The notes below the pieces were generated by a model, which was not told the origin of the DNA, made no database searches, and was given only the letters and a program-made list of their open reading frames with translations. A DNA stretch of 32,517 nt from Deltaproteobacteria bacterium (GTDB lineage: Bacteria; Desulfobacterota; Dissulfuribacteria; Dissulfuribacterales; UBA3076), in assembly GCA_030605675.1 (NCBI GenBank), contig JAUWHV010000124.1:1-32517 (forward strand). Reading direction: 5' to 3'. Numbering within the stretch: position 1 is the stretch's first letter; each line of letters starts with the position of its first letter. Of this stretch, positions 8,306-25,555 are shown in pieces. The translations under genes and the position numbers were made by a program.

Positions 8306-8418
8306 ATTGAGGGATTGAGGGATTGAGGGATTGAATGTACTGTAATGATTATAAATTAGGAATTGCAAATTGAGAGATTGAAAATATTCATCGATTTAAA
8401 TTCCTCAATTCCTAAATC
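8306..8418. repeat. GAGGGATT x3 tandem octamers with degenerate copies and an inverted arm
   Basis: Three perfect GAGGGATT units at 8309-8332. Degenerate same-sense units follow at 8355-8386. The complementary arm aaattcctcaattcctaaatc is at 8398-8418. Confidence 0.6.
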
Positions 8419-8476
8419 TATTAGTAATAATTAAAGTATGATATTGCCGGAGGTATTATTCTTGAGGAAAAAAATT

Positions 8477-8911
8477 ATGGACCGCGGTTTTGCAAGGAGC
8501 CTTGAGAGGAATTCGGGTTTTACCCTGATTGAACTCCTTGTGGTGGTAATTATCATCGGGCTTTTGGCTTCCCTGGTAGCACCAAAATTTTTCGGAAAGC
8601 TGGGAGGAAGCAAACAAAAGATTACAAAGGCCCAAATCGAGCTCTTTGGTGCCGCTCTTGACGAGTTCCGCCTGGATAACGGCCGTTATCCCAGTACTGA
8701 GGAGGGCCTCTTGGCCTTGCGGGACAAGCCGGACGATCTTGAAAATTGGGCTGGACCTTACCTGCCCAAGGCCATTCCAAAGGATTCATGGGGACACGAA
8801 TATGTCTACAGTTCTCCCGGAGAACACTATGACTATGATCTTATTAGTTACGGCCGTGACGGCGAGCCGGGCGGAGAGGATGAAGACTCAGACATAGTAA
8901 GTTGGGAGTGA
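8477..8911 (+). CDS. gspG: Type II secretion major pseudopilin GspG
   Basis: The prepilin leader ends G|FTLIELLVVVIIIG. The C-terminus is GspG-like (DSWGHEYVYSSPGEHYDYDLISYGRDGEPGGEDEDSDIVSW). The ATG at 8477 has GAGGA upstream. Confidence 0.9.
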   Translation: MDRGFARSLERNSGFTLIELLVVVIIIGLLASLVAPKFFGKLGGSKQKITKAQIELFGAALDEFRLDNGRYPSTEEGLLALRDKPDDLENWAGPYLPKAIPKDSWGHEYVYSSPGEHYDYDLISYGRDGEPGGEDEDSDIVSWE

Positions 8912-8915
8912 GGGA

Positions 8916-8951
8916 ATTTGGTGATTTGGTGAATGGGTGAATGGGTGAATG
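8916..8951. repeat. Tandem octamers ATTTGGTG x2 plus AATGGGTG x2.5 spanning the gspG-gspE junction
   Basis: Read directly from the sequence. Each AATGGGTG unit contains an ATG. The tract overlaps the annotated gspE start at 8933. Confidence 0.8.
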
Positions 8952-10585
8952 TCCAAAACGTAGGGTCTTTCCTGGGGTTTTTGCTCAAGAGGAAAGACAA
9001 AAACGAACTCCAAAACGCAAGTGGGGATCAGGTTTCTGAGGCCGAATCAAATTCAGCTGAGGTGCCGGGGTCTGGATTTCCCCAAATAGGCGTGGCTGAT
9101 TTTCCTGACAAGCCGCCTATGATAAATGGGCTGTCTCCGCAGCTAATGCGGCAGTGGAAGGTCGTCACATTATCTATGGATGATTCTGAAGCCAGGGTGG
9201 CTATGGCCACGCCCCAGGACCTGTACCTGAGAGAACTCCTTGAAAGTATTTATCAGAAGCCGGTTCGTCCCTTTCTTGCCAGTGAAGAGGATATCCTTGC
9301 TGCTGTTTACAGATGGTATGAGGCCGATATAGACCTGGGAGGGGAGGAGTCCGGGGACGAATCCCGTACTGTTGATGAGCTATGGGAAGATCCTGAACAA
9401 CTGCGGGATCTTGCCTCCGAGGCACCTGTGATACGTCTTGTAAACCATATTATCAGTCAGGCACTTGAGGTAAAGGCTTCAGACATACATTTTGAGCCAT
9501 TCAGGGATCACTTTAAGGTAAGGTTCCGTATAGATGGAGTCCTTCACGACATTGAGACAGTTGCAAAAAAGCTCCAACCCGCAATTACTTCCCGGCTAAA
9601 ACTGATGGCCAAGATGAACATCGCTGAGATGCGCTTGCCTCAGGATGGGCGCATTAAGGTCCGCGAGGGGCAAAGAGAGATAGACATCAGGGTCTCTTCT
9701 CTGCCGACCCTTTTTGGGGAGAGTATAGTGCTCAGGCTCCTCAACCGGGAGGAGGTCCGGCTGGAATTGGAAACTTTGGGGATTTCAGCCGACATATTGG
9801 GGGATTTTGAAAAGATAATTTCAAGGCCCTATGGGTTGATCCTGGTCACCGGTCCGACCGGCAGCGGGAAGACCACTACTCTTTATGGGGCTATGAACCG
9901 CATCAATGCCCCGGACAAGAAAATTGTAACAGTTGAAGACCCGGTTGAGTATCAGTTGGATGGGATAAACCAGATCCAGATCCGTCCTAAGATAGGGTTG
10001 GGCTTTGCCTCTGCCCTTCGCAACATCCTCAGACAGGATCCGGATGTGATACTTGTCGGAGAGATCCGGGACGCTGAGACTGCCGAGATTGCCATACAGT
10101 CCGCACTTACCGGACATCTTGTATTTTCTACCCTCCACACAAACGATGCTGCAAGCGCAATTACCAGGTTGCAGGAGATGGGCGTTGAGTCTTATCTTTT
10201 GTCCTCCTGTCTACTTGCAGTGATGGCCCAGAGGCTGGTCAGGAAGATCTGCCCGCATTGCGGGGCTGCTTACGATCTGCCGCCTGGTTTTTTCGAGGAG
10301 GTAGTCCAGGCCCTTGGGGTGGACAGCACTCAGGCTCCATCCGAGGTCTGGCGGGGTAAGGGTTGCGCTAATTGTGCCAATACAGGATTTTCCGGTCGTA
10401 CTGGTATATACGAGCTGATCCAGGTGGATGACGAAATAAGGCGACTGATAGTCAAGGGTGCTGATAGCGGCTCAATCCTTTCCAAGGCCCGATCTCTGGG
10501 CATGAGGACGCTTCGTCAAGACGGCCTTCAAAAGGTCCTTGCAGGTCAAACAACCTTTGAAGAGGTTATGAGAGTCACTAATTAG
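8933..10585 (+). CDS. gspE: Type II secretion ATPase GspE
   Basis: Walker A (GPTGSGKTTT), Asp and His boxes, and a CxxC...CxxC zinc motif (CPHC...CANC). The N-terminal domain is T2SSE-like. The start could also be the in-frame GTG at 8945. Confidence 0.9.
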   Translation: MGEWVNVQNVGSFLGFLLKRKDKNELQNASGDQVSEAESNSAEVPGSGFPQIGVADFPDKPPMINGLSPQLMRQWKVVTLSMDDSEARVAMATPQDLYLRELLESIYQKPVRPFLASEEDILAAVYRWYEADIDLGGEESGDESRTVDELWEDPEQLRDLASEAPVIRLVNHIISQALEVKASDIHFEPFRDHFKVRFRIDGVLHDIETVAKKLQPAITSRLKLMAKMNIAEMRLPQDGRIKVREGQREIDIRVSSLPTLFGESIVLRLLNREEVRLELETLGISADILGDFEKIISRPYGLILVTGPTGSGKTTTLYGAMNRINAPDKKIVTVEDPVEYQLDGINQIQIRPKIGLGFASALRNILRQDPDVILVGEIRDAETAEIAIQSALTGHLVFSTLHTNDAASAITRLQEMGVESYLLSSCLLAVMAQRLVRKICPHCGAAYDLPPGFFEEVVQALGVDSTQAPSEVWRGKGCANCANTGFSGRTGIYELIQVDDEIRRLIVKGADSGSILSKARSLGMRTLRQDGLQKVLAGQTTFEEVMRVTN

Positions 10586-10611
10586 AAGCTGAAGGCTGAA
10601 GGCTGAAGGCT
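10585..10611. repeat. GAAGGCT x3 tandem heptamers (plus one GAAGCT) between gspE and gspF
   Basis: The tract reads gaagct gaaggct gaaggct gaaggct and begins on the last base of the gspE stop codon. Confidence 0.8.
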
Positions 10612-10635
10612 TAGAGCTAGGAATTGGGTTTTTAA

Positions 10636-11841
10636 ATGTCTACTTTTGCTTATGAGGCCCTGGATGTTAAAGGGCAAAAGATTGAAGGGACCGACGAGGC
10701 TGCAAGCCAGGATCTCTTGATTTCCATGTTAATCTCCCAGGGCCTTCAACCTGTTAAGGTTAAGAGGTTAAAGCGGTTCTATGCTTTATGGAGCAGGAAA
10801 GGGGTCAGGTTCAGCCACGATGACCTTCTCTACTTCACCAGTGAATTGGCTGATCTTCTGGAAGCCGGTGTCCACTTGGAGCGGACCCTGGTCATCCTGG
10901 AAGATGCTGCTGAGCAGAAGACAATACGTGTGCTGATTAATACCATAAGGCAGGAGATCCACGGGGGTAAAAAGCTGTCAGAGGCATTATCTTCCTATCC
11001 GGACATCTTCAATCCCCTGTACATTAATATGGTGCGCGTAGGGGAGTTGGGAGGTGTCCTCCCTGTGGTTCTCAAGAAGCTGAGTGGTTTCATCAAGCGT
11101 TCAAGAGATATTCGAAAGTTTATTATTACTTCATCAATCTATCCAAGCATCCTGGCCCTTGTGGGCATTTTATCAGTCTTTATATTGGTAACCTTTGTTG
11201 TGCCGAAGTTTGGCCAGATCTTTGAGGATCTCAATCAGCCTATGCCCCTGGCCACCAAGTGCATCGTTGGGGCCAGCATGTTTCTACAGTCATGGTGGTG
11301 GTTGTTAGGCCTGGTTATTTTTGTGCTTAGTACTGGTTTGTACTCCTATATCAAGTCACCTGAAGGGAGGGCCTGGTGGGACAAGGTGGTGCTACGTTTG
11401 CCCTTGGCCGGCTCCATGTTGCTGAAGATAGAACTCGGTCGCCTGGCCCGCACTCTGGGCACTTTGCTTGAGAGTGGTATTCCCATACTCAAGGGTATTT
11501 CTCTTTCTGGAGAAGTGGTTTCTAACAGCGTTATACGGAGTGCTGTGGATGATCTGTATAAGGGAGTCCGTCAGGGAAAGAGTCTAAGCCAACTTATGAA
11601 ACAAGCAAAGGTCTTTCCCTCACTTATGGTACACCTGGTGGCTGTTGGAGAGGAAACAGGGGCTATGGGGCCTATGCTTTTAAAGATTGCGGATGATTTT
11701 GAAGAAAAGGTCCAGCACGACACCAAGGTCTATTTATCCCTGGTGGAACCTATAACTATAGTACTGATGGGAATTATAATCGGCGGGATTATCCTGTCTA
11801 TGCTCCTTGCTATATTTGGTATTAACGATGTGGCTTTATAA
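10636..11841 (+). CDS. gspF: Type II secretion inner-membrane platform protein GspF
   Basis: 401 aa with the duplicated T2SSF domain architecture and three TM segments. It resembles GspF/PilC throughout. Confidence 0.9.
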   Translation: MSTFAYEALDVKGQKIEGTDEAASQDLLISMLISQGLQPVKVKRLKRFYALWSRKGVRFSHDDLLYFTSELADLLEAGVHLERTLVILEDAAEQKTIRVLINTIRQEIHGGKKLSEALSSYPDIFNPLYINMVRVGELGGVLPVVLKKLSGFIKRSRDIRKFIITSSIYPSILALVGILSVFILVTFVVPKFGQIFEDLNQPMPLATKCIVGASMFLQSWWWLLGLVIFVLSTGLYSYIKSPEGRAWWDKVVLRLPLAGSMLLKIELGRLARTLGTLLESGIPILKGISLSGEVVSNSVIRSAVDDLYKGVRQGKSLSQLMKQAKVFPSLMVHLVAVGEETGAMGPMLLKIADDFEEKVQHDTKVYLSLVEPITIVLMGIIIGGIILSMLLAIFGINDVAL

Positions 11842-11873
11842 AGGTGGAAGGTTAAAGGTAGAAGGTTGAAGGG
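11841..11873. repeat. GAAGGT/AAAGGT-type repeat tract at the gspF-gspH junction
   Basis: The tract reads aaggtggaaggttaaaggtagaaggttgaaggg. It overlaps the TTG start proposed for gspH. Confidence 0.6.
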
Positions 11874-12351
11874 AGCAACGCAGCCATCGGGCAAAGGATT
11901 GGGTTTTGCGAGCCGCTCAAAGGGTTTTACGCTAATTGAGCTTCTTGTAGTGCTGGTACTGATAGGCATCTTTAGTTCTCTGGTTTTTGTGTCTGTTGCC
12001 GGCGGGATACTTCGGTCTGAAGAGAGGCGTTTTGTTCATTCCTTTACTCAGACCCTGGTCCGGGCCAGGTCCGCAAGCCTGGGTAGAGGCGAGGCAGTCA
12101 GGTTTTTTATTGATGGAGAGAGCAGGACCTATTGTGTTGAAGGCCTTAAATGGCAGAATATCCCAGAGTCCATAGAGGTAGAAGGCGAGGGAGTGGGGGA
12201 AGTGGAACCAGGTGTTCATGCCGTGACCTTTTATCCTGATGGAAGTTCAAGCGGTGGGGAAATTGATCTCAGATGGGAAGGAGGTCGTCTGGACCGGATA
12301 GTGATAGACAGGTTCCTGGGGCTGATACGCATGGAGCGCATTTCATCGTGA
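11866..12351 (+). CDS. gspH: Minor pseudopilin, GspH-like
   Basis: Prepilin motif KG|FTLIELLVVLVLIG, with size and operon position as expected for GspH. The start is uncertain: TTG at 11866 or TTG at 11899. Confidence 0.65.
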   Translation: MKGATQPSGKGLGFASRSKGFTLIELLVVLVLIGIFSSLVFVSVAGGILRSEERRFVHSFTQTLVRARSASLGRGEAVRFFIDGESRTYCVEGLKWQNIPESIEVEGEGVGEVEPGVHAVTFYPDGSSSGGEIDLRWEGGRLDRIVIDRFLGLIRMERISS

Positions 12352-12773
12352 CAATCACCAAATCACCAAATCACCAAATCACCAAATTCTCCTCAGGCTT
12401 TACCCTCATAGAGGTCCTGGTTGCCACGGCAATAATGGGTATTTCGCTCGGGGTGTTGCTTTCGGGCTTTGCACAGGGCCATAGGCAGGCATTTAGGGGC
12501 GATATGGCCAGACAGGCCGCAACCATAGCAGAGTCTGTGCTTTATGGAATGGCCAATGAGCTTGAATCCTTGTCTTCAAGTGAGGAGGACGTAGAGGACC
12601 ATCCCGGGTGGAGCTATAAGGTGGAGATTCAGGACCTGGTCTTGAAGATAACGGCCCAGGACCAGGAAGAGAAAGAGATCGAGGTGCCTGAGCTGAAGGA
12701 GCTTATTCTTACTATACAACCTCCGTATAATGCTCATCCCTTTGTATTGACCAGCTGGATACCGGCAGAGTAG
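12348..12773 (+). CDS. gspI: Minor pseudopilin, GspI-like
   Basis: Prepilin motif SG|FTLIEVLVATAIMG. The GTG at 12348 overlaps the gspH stop (GTGA). The ATG at 12273 would give an implausibly long 42-aa leader that overlaps gspH. Confidence 0.6.
   Translation: MTITKSPNHQITKFSSGFTLIEVLVATAIMGISLGVLLSGFAQGHRQAFRGDMARQAATIAESVLYGMANELESLSSSEEDVEDHPGWSYKVEIQDLVLKITAQDQEEKEIEVPELKELILTIQPPYNAHPFVLTSWIPAE
12353..12387. repeat. AATCACCA x4 perfect tandem octamers inside the gspI leader-peptide codons
   Basis: Four perfect 8-nt units at 12353-12384 plus AAT. The tract is translated as ITKSPNHQITK. Confidence 0.9.
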
Positions 12774-12775
12774 AT

Positions 12776-13462
12776 ATGAGGAAAAAAACAATCACCAAAT
12801 CTTCATCAGGCTTCACACTCCTTGAACTCTTGATTTCCGTCTCTCTTATTGCTGTTTTGGTTCTTATTCTTTCCATGTCTGTTCGTACAGGACTGAGGGC
12901 CTACAGCAGGGGAAAAGAGATCAACGAAGGTTTAATAGTTGTATCCGCTATTGAAGGACTTTTGGGCAGACAGCTCAGGGCCGTGGTGAGGAAGGATGAA
13001 CCTGATCTCAAGGATTTTTCTGAGTTTCATGGGGAAGAGAACGAAGTCTCCTTTGTGACTACCCACGTGCCATTAGGCTCTCAGGCAGGTGGTCTTTTCA
13101 AGGTAGTTTATCGTTTTGATGAGAGAGGGAAAAAACTTATCTATGCTCAGAAGGTCATTACCAGGCCTGAAGATCTGAAAGAGGCTCTTCCCGACAGCAT
13201 AGACCCGGAAGATAAAGAAGACCTGATGGAACAGGGCTGGGGCCTTTCGATCGTAGATGGGATAGATTCTCTGGCCTTTACATATCAGGGTACATTGCAG
13301 AATGAATCCGCCCCTGAGGATTGGCAGGATGGCTGGGATAAAAAGGGCAAGGTGCCCGAGGCAGTGGCCATGGGCTTGGCTTTTTCCGATGATGGTGAGG
13401 AGCCTGCAGCCACCTGGCGGATTTTTTATACAGACCCTCTTGTTCTGGTAAATGCAGAGTGA
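12776..13462 (+). CDS. gspJ: Minor pseudopilin, GspJ-like
   Basis: MRKKTITKSSSG|FTLLELLISVSLIAVLVL, with size and position as expected for GspJ. Confidence 0.6.
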   Translation: MRKKTITKSSSGFTLLELLISVSLIAVLVLILSMSVRTGLRAYSRGKEINEGLIVVSAIEGLLGRQLRAVVRKDEPDLKDFSEFHGEENEVSFVTTHVPLGSQAGGLFKVVYRFDERGKKLIYAQKVITRPEDLKEALPDSIDPEDKEDLMEQGWGLSIVDGIDSLAFTYQGTLQNESAPEDWQDGWDKKGKVPEAVAMGLAFSDDGEEPAATWRIFYTDPLVLVNAE

Positions 13463-22982: not shown

Positions 22983-25555
22983 TATCTAGGCACTTTGCCC
23001 TTGTGCCATAAGTACACTACAGGGCTGGCTACGAATACAGAGGAATAGGTCCCAACCAGCACTCCTAATAGCAGAGTAAAGGCAAAGTCATGTATTACCA
23101 CACCACCAAAGAAAAAGATGCACAAGACCACCATCATCGTGGTCATAGACGTAATAATTGTCCTGCTCAGCATCTCGTTGATGCTTCGATTTATGATCTC
23201 AGCAAAAGGCAATTTCTTGTAACGTTTGATATTTTCTCTGATTCTATCAAAGACTACTACTGTATCAGTGAGGGAGTAGCCGCCAAGTGTCAGAAGGGCG
23301 GTTATTGTCAGGAGTGTTATTTCCTTGTTCAGGATAAATAAAATGCCAAGTACTACCAGTACGTCATGGAAGGTGGCGGCAGTAGCTGCTATTCCAAAGC
23401 TCAAATTGAACCTGAAGGCCAGGTAACAGATTATGCCCGCAAATGATATGCATATTGCTATCAGTGCCTTACGCCTCAGCTCCTTGCTCACGGTTGAACC
23501 GATCTCGGCCTTGCTTTCTATTACAAAGCGGGTCTCGGGAAGGCTTTCTTTTAAGCCGTTGGTTATACGGGTCTCTATGTCTCCCACAGTAGCCACTGAT
23601 TTCTTGACGCGTACGATTAAGACGTGTTTCCCCGGCACTTCCTGAAGGGAGTAACCCTCGACACCTGTTTTTGTCAGGGCCTTTCTCACATTGTCCAGGG
23701 TAAAGGGCTTGTCCGCGCGGTACTGGACCATGGTCCCACCGGAAAAGTCTACGCCGAGGTTGGCTGCCCCCCTTACGACCTGTATGAAGCCTGCAAGACC
23801 TACGGTTACCATGATCACTGACAGTGCGAAGGCGAAATTCCTGCGTCCCATGAAGTCCAGGCTGGTTTTCTTGATTAACTGGAGGAACCTCAGGTTAGTC
23901 AGGGCATGCTTGGCCAGCAGCCCGTCATATACCATCCTGGTTCCAAAAATGGCAGTAAAGAGGTTGATGACAATACCGGCGGACAGGGTGACGGCAAAGC
24001 CCTTGATTGGGCCGGTTCCAAAGAGGAACAGGGCTACGGCGGTTATAAGAGTGGTAACATGGGCGTCTACAATGGTCCAGAAGGCCTTGTCATAACCCCC
24101 GTCAATAAATGCCTTAAGGGGCTTTCCAAGGGCCCTTTCCTCCCGCATGCGCTCAAAGATCAGCACGTTGGAGTCAACCCCCATACCAATGATGAGTATG
24201 ATGCCGGCTATGCCGGGAAGGGTCAGTGTGGCCTGGAAAAGCGCCAGAACAGCCATAAGAAAGAGCAGGTTCAGGACCATGGCTATGTTCGCTATGAAAC
24301 CTGAAAACGTGTAATATATGACCATGAAGACAACTACAAGGGCCGCTCCGAGCAGCCCCGAATACAGGCCGTGCTGTATGGAATCATGGCCGAGCGACGG
24401 ACCTACCGTGACGTTTTGAATAATGCTGATAGGTGCGGGCAGGGCCCCGGCTCTCAGCACAATGGCAAGGTCGGATGCCTCTTCAGTAGTAAATGAGCCG
24501 GTGATCTGGGCATGCCCTCCTCCTATACGTTCCCTTATTACCGGTGCAGAGCGGACTACTCCGTCCAGGACGATGGCAAGACGCTTGCCCACATTATCAC
24601 CGGTGATTTTCTCAAAGAGTCCTGCCCCCCGATCCGTAAACTCAAGGGCAACATAGGGCTCGTTGTAATTCCCGCCGATCCGGACATGGGCAGTCTTTAC
24701 AGTATCCCCTGTCATCAGCGTTTTGTCCTTGAGAAGAATCGGCGTCTTTCGGGGTTTGCCGGTGCGATCATCGACCTCCTTAAGGAAGTAGATGGAATCG
24801 TCTCTGGGTATCTGGCCCTTCAGTACAGAGTTAAGGGCCTTAATGTTATAGCCGGCTGGAAGGCGACCGCTATCTATGGCCTGGCGGATAAGCCTTCCAA
24901 GATCTACTCCTGCCTCGTCATCCACCAGCTTGAACGCCAGTTGCGCGGTCTGCCCTATGAGCTTGAGTGCCCGTTCAGGGTCCTGTATCCCCGGAAGCTG
25001 GACTACTATTTCTTCCTCGCCTTGACGGACGATTACAGGTTCTGTAACACCAAACTGGTCTATCCGGTTACGAATGATCTCCAGGGACTGATCAACCGTA
25101 TTTTCTCTTATGAATTTTTCTTCTTCCGGGGAGAGTCTTAATACCAGGCTGGGGAATTTCCCCTCTTCTTTTACCTTTACGAGTTCGAGGCTGGGGAATT
25201 CATCTTCCAGAACGGCCTTTACCCTTCCCACTGCGTCCTTGTTAGGAAGAAAGAACAGTATTTCGTCAGGGTTCGGACTCTGGCGGCGCACCAATGTTAT
25301 CTGTCTGCGCCCCAGGGACTCCTTAAGGTCCGTAGCGGCAAGATCTGCAGCGTTTCTAACTGCCTGGTCCACGTCTACCTTGAGGATGAGGTGCATTCCC
25401 CCCTGGAGGTCCAGACCAAGTTTCAGACCCTCGCTGTAGATATACTTTTTGAACCAGTCAGGCGTATCTTTATAGAAAGAGGGCAGTACAAAAATCACAG
25501 ACAAGGCAATAAGTGCTGCCATCAAGATAAATTTCCAGCGCAGACCTGTGGGCAT
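22982..25555 (-). CDS. secDF: Fused protein translocase subunit SecDF
   Basis: 857 aa. A SecD-like periplasmic domain and six TM segments are followed by a SecF-like half with six more TM segments. Confidence 0.9.
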   Translation of the reverse strand: MPTGLRWKFILMAALIALSVIFVLPSFYKDTPDWFKKYIYSEGLKLGLDLQGGMHLILKVDVDQAVRNAADLAATDLKESLGRRQITLVRRQSPNPDEILFFLPNKDAVGRVKAVLEDEFPSLELVKVKEEGKFPSLVLRLSPEEEKFIRENTVDQSLEIIRNRIDQFGVTEPVIVRQGEEEIVVQLPGIQDPERALKLIGQTAQLAFKLVDDEAGVDLGRLIRQAIDSGRLPAGYNIKALNSVLKGQIPRDDSIYFLKEVDDRTGKPRKTPILLKDKTLMTGDTVKTAHVRIGGNYNEPYVALEFTDRGAGLFEKITGDNVGKRLAIVLDGVVRSAPVIRERIGGGHAQITGSFTTEEASDLAIVLRAGALPAPISIIQNVTVGPSLGHDSIQHGLYSGLLGAALVVVFMVIYYTFSGFIANIAMVLNLLFLMAVLALFQATLTLPGIAGIILIIGMGVDSNVLIFERMREERALGKPLKAFIDGGYDKAFWTIVDAHVTTLITAVALFLFGTGPIKGFAVTLSAGIVINLFTAIFGTRMVYDGLLAKHALTNLRFLQLIKKTSLDFMGRRNFAFALSVIMVTVGLAGFIQVVRGAANLGVDFSGGTMVQYRADKPFTLDNVRKALTKTGVEGYSLQEVPGKHVLIVRVKKSVATVGDIETRITNGLKESLPETRFVIESKAEIGSTVSKELRRKALIAICISFAGIICYLAFRFNLSFGIAATAATFHDVLVVLGILFILNKEITLLTITALLTLGGYSLTDTVVVFDRIRENIKRYKKLPFAEIINRSINEMLSRTIITSMTTMMVVLCIFFFGGVVIHDFAFTLLLGVLVGTYSSVFVASPVVYLWHKGKVPR

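Follow-up and report, generated by a model that had tools for sequence, protein, structure and literature searches.

An octamer repeat in the GspI prepilin leader of a Seep-SRB2 bacterium is probably a tolerated passenger and not a phase-variation switch

Introduction

In the genome of an uncultured deltaproteobacterium of the genus Seep-SRB2, the gene for the minor pseudopilin GspI opens with a perfect tandem array of the octamer AATCACCA. The question raised by this locus is whether the array turns the gene, and with it type II secretion, off and on, or is simply carried along. We analyzed the full 32,517 nt of the contig on which the gene lies (JAUWHV010000124.1 of assembly GCA_030605675.1; hereafter the window). 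The contig (C79) is part of a metagenome-assembled genome (MAG; G000) of 1.66 Mb in 179 contigs that is 88% complete, and its host genus consists of sulfate-reducing partners of methane-oxidizing archaea. An earlier reading of the window from its letters (the original prediction) had seen in the array the classical architecture of a slipped-strand phase-variation switch, and had offered as an alternative that a leader that is cleaved off tolerates the insertion.

This alternative is the better-supported of the two readings. We consider it probable that the gspI tract is a member of a genus-specific, dispersed family of simple-sequence repeats (SSRs), a tolerated passenger in a cleaved leader and not an evolved switch.

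A perfect octamer array at the start of gspI

The array of AATCACCA comprises 4.4 perfect tandem copies on the forward strand (12353..12387) and is translated within the GspI leader (..TKSPNHQITK..). It was identified from the sequence, with Tandem Repeats Finder and with a mismatch search. Positions 12348-12410 read GTG AC AATCACCA AATCACCA AATCACCA AATCACCA AAT TCTCC TCA GGC TTT ACC CTC ATA GAG, and Tandem Repeats Finder returned for 12353-12387 a period of 8, 4.4 copies, 100% matches and a score of 70. When the window was searched for the four-unit, 32-nt pattern with up to three mismatches, the gspI tract was the single site, and no site was found in 100 dinucleotide-preserving shuffles. 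The four perfect octamers of the original prediction are thereby confirmed. The array sets in 2 nt past the gspI start codon and one base past the gspH stop codon. Its unit of 8 nt, lying in the 5′ coding region of gspI, is not a multiple of three, so that changes in unit number shift the frame; as had been pointed out, adding or losing one or two units would frameshift gspI.

The leader of the adjacent gspJ gene carries a one-unit "seed" of the same repeat, AATCACCAAAT (1.4 units; 12790..12800, forward strand), which is present as four units in six congeneric genomes. From its ATG at 12776, gspJ reads ATG AGG AAA AAA ACA ATC ACC AAA TCT TCA TCA GGC TTC. The resulting leaders are V/MTITKSPNHQITKFSSG|FTLIE for gspI (17 aa) and MRKKTITKSSSG|FTLLE for gspJ (12 aa), and compared with the one-copy form of gspJ, gspI is longer by 24 nt, which equals three units or eight codons. 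The claim that the gspI array is a three-octamer, in-frame expansion of a motif shared with gspJ is borne out by two congeners (G013 and G015), in which the gspI leader is the one-unit form VTITKSSSG.

The gspI gene and its prepilin leader

The gspI gene (12348..12773, forward strand) encodes a protein of 141 aa and lies in an operon with the order gspE(8933)-F-H-I-J-K-L/PilN-M. It is flanked by gspH (11866..12351, forward strand; assigned from gene order and profile matches), the stop codon of which adjoins the array, and by gspJ (12776-13462, forward strand; assigned from gene order). Matches of GspI to hidden Markov models of its family are weak and remain below the cut-offs (TIGR01707, 24.1 vs 44.35; XpsI NF047828, 35.9 vs 150), and the name is therefore based on the gene order E-F-H-I-J-K-L-M. 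The prepilin signal at the N-terminus, a G|FTLxE motif for cleavage and N-methylation with a hydrophobic helix after it, exceeds the cut-offs of both models that recognize it (Pfam N_methyl PF07963, E=2.9e-7, 30.2 bits, cut-off 21.2; TIGR02532, E=6.7e-6, 25.7 bits, cut-off 16.3). It defines a class III (prepilin) leader of 17 codons (12348..12398, forward strand), with cleavage predicted after the glycine at 12396-12398 and before FTLIE. The genome also encodes a prepilin peptidase, as a Peptidase_A24 gene (PF01478, 79.4 bits) is present on contig C68; together with the class III signal-peptide motif, this suggests that the leader is removed.

Both candidate starts of gspI, at 12273 and 12348, lie 5′ of the tract, as originally noted. 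The GTG at 12348..12350 (forward strand) overlaps the TGA stop codon of gspH (12349-12351) as GTGA. This overlap is common to all congeners, being kept in 13 further congeneric genomes that include two without an array in gspI (G012 and G008). Most alleles start with GTG; ATG is used in G002, L019 and L048, and TTG in L045. Without an array, gspI of G012 begins GTG ATA GTA AAA AGA TCT TCA TCA GGT (VIVKRSSSG|F), and the leader of G008 is VIITRSSSG|F. In a genome of an outgroup genus (G022) the overlap is ATGA and the gspI leader has 6 aa (MKRSSG|F). Because the GTGA/ATGA overlap is conserved into array-less species and the outgroup, we prefer the start at 12348 over the ATG at 12273, which was rejected, being located inside gspH and giving a leader of 42 aa.

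A start downstream of the array was rejected as well. The window holds no in-frame ATG, GTG or TTG between the tract and G|FTLIE, in agreement with the original prediction, and the same holds for all 25 distinct gspI alleles described below; the only in-frame near-cognate codon is the ATC at 12378, which the conserved upstream GTG/ATG makes unnecessary. Since the upstream start is conserved and no allele has an in-frame start downstream, the array is translated as part of the leader. Orthologues of gspI in the same order that lack any array have leaders of 6-21 aa, and as the 21-aa leader, from another genus, is free of repeats, a leader of 17 aa falls within the range of the order.

Copy number in gspI and gspJ of relatives

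Whole-genome searches and one metagenome scan supplied leader sequences for 14 congeneric genomes and for 16 metagenome contigs; the congeneric genomes are not independent samples. These yielded 25 distinct gspI and 25 distinct gspJ alleles, and the open reading frame (ORF) was complete and in frame in every one (50/50). The alleles have one or four units, with the addition of zero units in two deep branches and one four-unit variant; none of the 50 has two, three or five units.

For gspI, the four-unit array is found in nine congeneric genomes (G000, G004, G010, G005 with one substitution, G007, G001, G017 with two substitutions, G002 and G009) and in ten metagenome contigs. G003 has four units of a variant, AATCGTCA, in a leader that is 3 nt shorter, while G013 and G015 have one unit and G012 and G008 have none. 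For gspJ, four units are present in G004, G010, G005, G007, G013 and G009, one unit in G000, G001, G017, G002, G015 and G003, and none in G012 and G008; the four-unit variant does not occur in this gene. The leaders accordingly measure 17, 16 or 9 aa in gspI and 20, 12 or 11 aa in gspJ. In the 16 metagenome contigs the leaders are likewise short or long, and all four combinations of short and long gspI and gspJ leaders were found. On a maximum-likelihood tree of the locus, from which the leader columns had been excluded, each gene requires at least three changes between long and short. In gspI these include two contractions from four units to one that are nested in the long clade, namely in G013 and in one metagenome lineage. 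Unlike the leaders, the gspF-gspH junction, which is intergenic, has variable lengths of 52 to 157 nt in these species.

The array is not an artefact of assembly, an explanation we rejected because it recurs in independent MAGs and in metagenome contigs of different studies. Copy number does change over evolutionary time (one versus four units); an out-of-frame state does not occur among the 50 alleles. Phase variation of gspI, the reading preferred in the original prediction, is not supported by these data and fails, at the level of assembled sequences, the refutation test that had been set for it, as both sets of 25 alleles show one or four units (apart from the two deep branches and the variant) and remain in frame, and as the same array resides in essential genes (see below).

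Two further observations concern these leaders. In L051 (NKAJ01001138.1), matches at 372-404 and 607-639 correspond to two segments comprising the gspH end and the gspI leader, 235 nt apart; the first copy is followed by a truncated ORF of 37 aa, and this arrangement arose either by local duplication or by misassembly of the repeat. In addition, the 8 nt that follow the array co-vary between gspI and gspJ per genome (L002, L003, L005, L020), such that both leaders carry AATTCTCC in G004, AATCCTCC in G010 and AATCCTCA in G007. The two leaders are 435 nt apart, and their co-variation is a hint of gene conversion between them.

The octamer family in the genome and the genus

Perfect arrays of at least three copies in G000 are mostly of heptamers (86) and octamers (49), with only 1-4 arrays for each of the periods 5, 6 and 9. 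The commonest unit is AAATCACC, a rotation of AATCACCA, which forms 24 arrays of at least three copies and 33 of at least two; the reversed unit, used as a control, forms none. The modal length of these arrays is 4.4-4.5 copies (~35 nt), and their right edge is mostly ...CACCAAAT|TC. Perfect sequence is found at 19 of the 34 loci in G000 that lie within six mismatches of four units. Of 17 other congeneric genomes, 16 contain a three-unit pattern, which is absent from all 13 genomes searched from other genera of the family or order. Long arrays are rare, with 22 loci in 18 genomes reaching at least five consensus units; the longest consensus array has six units, and one array of a variant unit in G003 has seven. 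The deep-branching G012 and G008, which lack arrays in the gspI and gspJ leaders, have few or no perfect arrays in their entire genomes.

On one strand, all frames of the unit AATCACCA are free of stop codons; on the other, each contains TGA. Three units of 8 nt make up 24 nt, so that the peptide is a circular permutation of NHQITKSP whichever frame is read. Long ORFs continue, on their sense strand, through ~30 of the 33 arrays; 10 arrays fall in the first ~15 codons and ~19 lie in mid-gene. For the genome-wide tallies, longest-ORF calls made here stood in for a trained gene finder. By this crude measure, the AATCACCA unit lies inside ORFs in 22 of 24 arrays, whereas for the other 39 units in G000, 93 of 111 arrays are intergenic. 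Pfam matches place arrays in DnaE (aa 2-14, before the PHP domain), ValRS, KdsB, MiaA, SelB and MurG (twice); in ProRS the array lies just before the editing domain and in LeuRS inside the editing-domain match. Arrays are thus carried in frame by essential genes such as dnaE, valS, proS, leuS and murG, and also by kdsB and selB. On contigs C142 (miaA) and C175 (mpl/murC-like) of G000, the likely true starts, ATG GTT GCC CTT GTC GGT.. and ATG ATC GGC ATT TGC GGC.., respectively, are located shortly 3′ of AATCACCA arrays.

Changes of the arrays over evolution

We aligned the 24 arrays of G000 with the orthologous sites in array-poor congeners, and two classes of sites were distinguished. At sites of the first class, G000 is longer by exactly 24 nt than congeners that have a seed of 1.4-1.5 units. 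Besides gspI, this applies to at least nine loci (valS, dnaE when compared with G003, and loci on C49, C84, C120, C17, C13, C175 and C12); in valS, the orthologous seed is GAATCACCAAAT in G015 and AGGACACTGAGT in G012. At sites of the second class, G012 or G015 has a degenerate sequence without any difference in length (proS, selB, C28, C130, dnaE, kdsB and C74).

G015 contains variant units that are specific to a locus, each of them perfect within its own array (AATTACCA, AATTATCA, AATCAACA, AATCCCCA and AATCAGCA). The variant AATCGTCA of G003 is found at at least three loci, with four, five and seven units, which include gspI (L011) and the arrays at G003:C33:72700-72755 and G003:C3:15050-15089. 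Judged from their sequences, the homogeneous, locus-specific variants indicate local contraction and re-expansion, which would amount to concerted evolution by slippage. They also weaken ectopic gene conversion as the sole source of the 24-nt steps, a candidate we rejected as such; conversion may still contribute, because AATCGTCA occurs at three loci in G003. The point-mutated gspI arrays of G005 and G017 have been kept at four units, and the persistence of such mutated arrays argues that turnover is not rapid.

Probable tolerance of the array in coding DNA

Three properties of the unit would make it compatible with coding sequence: on one strand it is open in any frame, three copies add up to eight codons, and the encoded permutations of NHQITKSP are hydrophilic and probably innocuous. 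In gspI, the array lies between a start codon that is conserved through its overlap with the gspH stop and the prepilin-peptidase site G|FTLIE, where it would only lengthen the leader, from 9 to 17 aa, before the leader is removed on maturation. Replication slippage would alter the array, and in coding DNA only steps of 24 nt, between one and four units, would survive selection; such steps would give rise to the short and long leaders of gspI and gspJ across species. Slips that leave the frame presumably arise and are then purged, which would make the tract a small mutational liability. A leader that is cleaved off is one of the most permissive coding positions for an array of this kind.

Several points weigh against the tract being no more than a tolerated passenger. 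The alleles compared here are assembly consensus sequences, and low-frequency subpopulations with out-of-frame arrays may exist. The enrichment of arrays at the 5′ ends of genes, like the repeat tracts found at all gsp junctions, could reflect a function that has escaped detection. The perfection of the G000 arrays (at 19 of 34 loci), compared with their degenerate orthologues in G012, fits homogenization and also fits selection on the sequence. Finally, the change from 1.4 to 4.4 units in essential genes must be a single event, since intermediates of +8 and +16 nt are not viable there; candidate mechanisms are reiterative slippage and the copying of another array. An unlikely elaboration is that arrays are actively renewed in three-unit quanta by single-event reiterative or templated copying, which would keep dozens of dispersed arrays perfect, and that those at gene starts, the gspI and gspJ leaders among them, modulate translation or allow secretion to enter, at low frequency, a heritable OFF state in consortia with methane-oxidizing archaea.

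Understanding the gspI tract as a tolerated passenger disposes of a claim that is tempting but lacks support, namely that type II secretion is phase-variable in this uncultured syntrophic sulfate reducer. The gspI and gspJ leaders constitute a clean natural experiment, in which a repeat of a length that is not a multiple of three changes in coding DNA only in three-unit (24-nt) steps, is gained and lost repeatedly in two adjacent genes, and belongs to a family that is also found inside essential enzymes. This informs how dispersed SSRs spread and how they are filtered by selection. For annotation it is a warning that odd N-terminal extensions or insertions in proteins of Seep-SRB2 MAGs stem from a DNA repeat and are not an evolved feature of the protein. 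The octamer tracts are also possible strain markers.

Alternative explanations

A first alternative is that the tract is a functional element of gene junctions that acts on the mRNA, either as a binding site for a post-transcriptional regulator in the AAUCACCA repeats or as an unstructured enhancer of translation initiation, and that it lies in coding sequence because gspH and gspI overlap. Repeat tracts do occur at the gspG-E, E-F, F-H and H-I junctions, with one unit at I-J, and one third of the in-gene AATCACCA arrays are located within the first ~15 codons. The arrays of miaA and mpl end 3-5 nt before the likely true start, without a Shine-Dalgarno sequence, the unit contains no G, and TAACTGA repeats in Beggiatoaceae have the same placement (MacGregor 2015; PMC4679880). 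Such an element is difficult to reconcile with the ~19 arrays in mid-gene, with short and long leaders that are interchangeable among sister species, and with G012 and G008, which do without leader arrays. Moreover, the predicted accessibility of positions -18..+12 (unpaired probability in ViennaRNA) did not differ between natural long and short leaders, neither for gspI (0.45 vs 0.44) nor for gspJ (0.45 vs 0.41), which counts against an enhancer of translation. We regard a junction element as quite unlikely.

A slipped-strand (contingency) switch, in which frequent changes of one or two units would turn gspI and the priming of the type II secretion pseudopilus off and on, has its model in neuO. 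In this gene, located in prophage CUS-3 of E. coli K1, a heptanucleotide variable-number tandem repeat (poly-psi) spans 2-93 copies and most often changes by a single unit, and OFF alleles are frequent (PMC3046976). The likeness is considerable: in both genes a repeat of a length that is not a multiple of three sets in exactly 2 nt past the start codon, only certain copy numbers keep the gene in frame, and three units encode a fixed N-terminal peptide. In gspI, furthermore, no internal start could rescue a frameshift, and the locus has slipped over evolutionary time. The two cases part in their alleles, as 0 of 50 distinct alleles are OFF here and only one or four units are seen; the arrays of G005 and G017 stay at four units despite their mutations; and the tracts are short (4.4 units in gspI, and at most six consensus units in the genus, or seven for one variant array). 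The same array is carried by dnaE, valS, proS, leuS and murG, where an OFF state would be lethal. A difference also exists at the protein level, since the neuO peptide modulates activity, whereas the repeat peptide of GspI is probably cleaved off. Taken together, we judge a switch to be very improbable.

That the tract is non-coding, a spacer like other junction repeats with gspI starting 3′ of it, is hardly credible: the array does set in one base past the gspH stop, and the other repeat families of the genome are mostly intergenic, but no ATG, GTG or TTG follows it in frame in 25 alleles, the upstream GTG/ATG/TTG over the gspH stop is conserved even without an array, and only frame-preserving lengths are seen, a constraint that spacers would not need and that the gspF-gspH spacer (52 to 157 nt) does not show.

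Comparison with known repeat families

The octamers can be compared with dispersed long SSRs, a class to which the TAACTGA repeats and the cyanobacterial STRR heptamers belong. Defined by units of 5-11 nt (Mrazek et al. 2007, cited in PMC4679880), this is the closest class described. Arrays of that type lie mostly in intergenic DNA, 5′ of starts; this was found for the other 39 units of G000 and not for the AATCACCA unit.

Direct repeats of TAACTGA have been described in marine Beggiatoaceae, some Cyanobacteria and Bacteroidetes, with a post-transcriptional role proposed in Beggiatoaceae (MacGregor 2015; PMC4679880). They resemble the octamers in that one short unit, repeated 2-6 times, is dispersed over very many loci and restricted to lineages, in that they are often situated at or just before start codons and operon junctions, and in that a few copies are in frame at the periphery of proteins, for example MurG. 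They differ in coding capacity: one strand of TAACTGA has a stop in every frame, and the great majority of these repeats are intergenic, whereas one strand of AATCACCA has no stop in any frame, and ~90% of its arrays lie in ORFs, many of them mid-gene in essential enzymes.

A search of the literature for in-frame octanucleotide repeats in bacteria led only to a study of Geobacter metallireducens (PMC2700814), which describes elements of four tandem heptanucleotide repeats (GGGACCG) at 49 sites inside genes and between them; a search on tandem repeats in Seep-SRB2 returned no paper. The Geobacter elements are similarly dispersed, have four units of a length that is not a multiple of three, lie within and between genes, and come from another member of the former Deltaproteobacteria. 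They differ in unit, length and composition, being rich in GC, and are interpreted as regulatory RNA; the available text of that paper reports no analysis of reading frame and no 24-nt steps.

A parallel for insertion into genes comes from Rickettsia. There, palindromic elements (RPEs) were reportedly found in frame in protein-coding genes by Ogata and colleagues in 2000. Like the octamers, these are short, selfish or neutral DNA that sits in frame at permissive positions of many unrelated and even essential genes, and they differ from tandem octamers in being palindromic and ~100-150 bp long. To our knowledge, no copy-number steps have been described for RPEs. The difference from known SSR families is an 8-nt unit that lies mostly inside ORFs and changes in three-unit steps.

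Other repeat tracts in the gsp operon

In the 5′ half of the gsp operon (8306-11872), every gene junction has a heptamer or octamer tract of its own. These are 3.6 copies of ATTGAGGG at 8306-8334, four copies of GGTGAATG at 8920-8951, 3.4 copies of GCTGAAG at 10588-10611 and 4.6 copies of an AAGGT-type unit at 11839-11872. The ATG called as the start of gspE (8933) sits inside the GGTGAATG array, and the true start of this gene is for that reason uncertain.

In addition, 2.1 units of the AATCACCA octamer are present in antisense orientation at the junction of gspG and gspE (8916..8932, reverse strand; 23586-23602 when counted on the minus strand of C79), where they are non-coding, with TGA in every frame. 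Positions 12371-12389 of the gspI tract and 8914-8932 form a perfect inverted match of 19 nt, which consists of two members of the octamer family and their usual AAATTC edge in opposite orientation.

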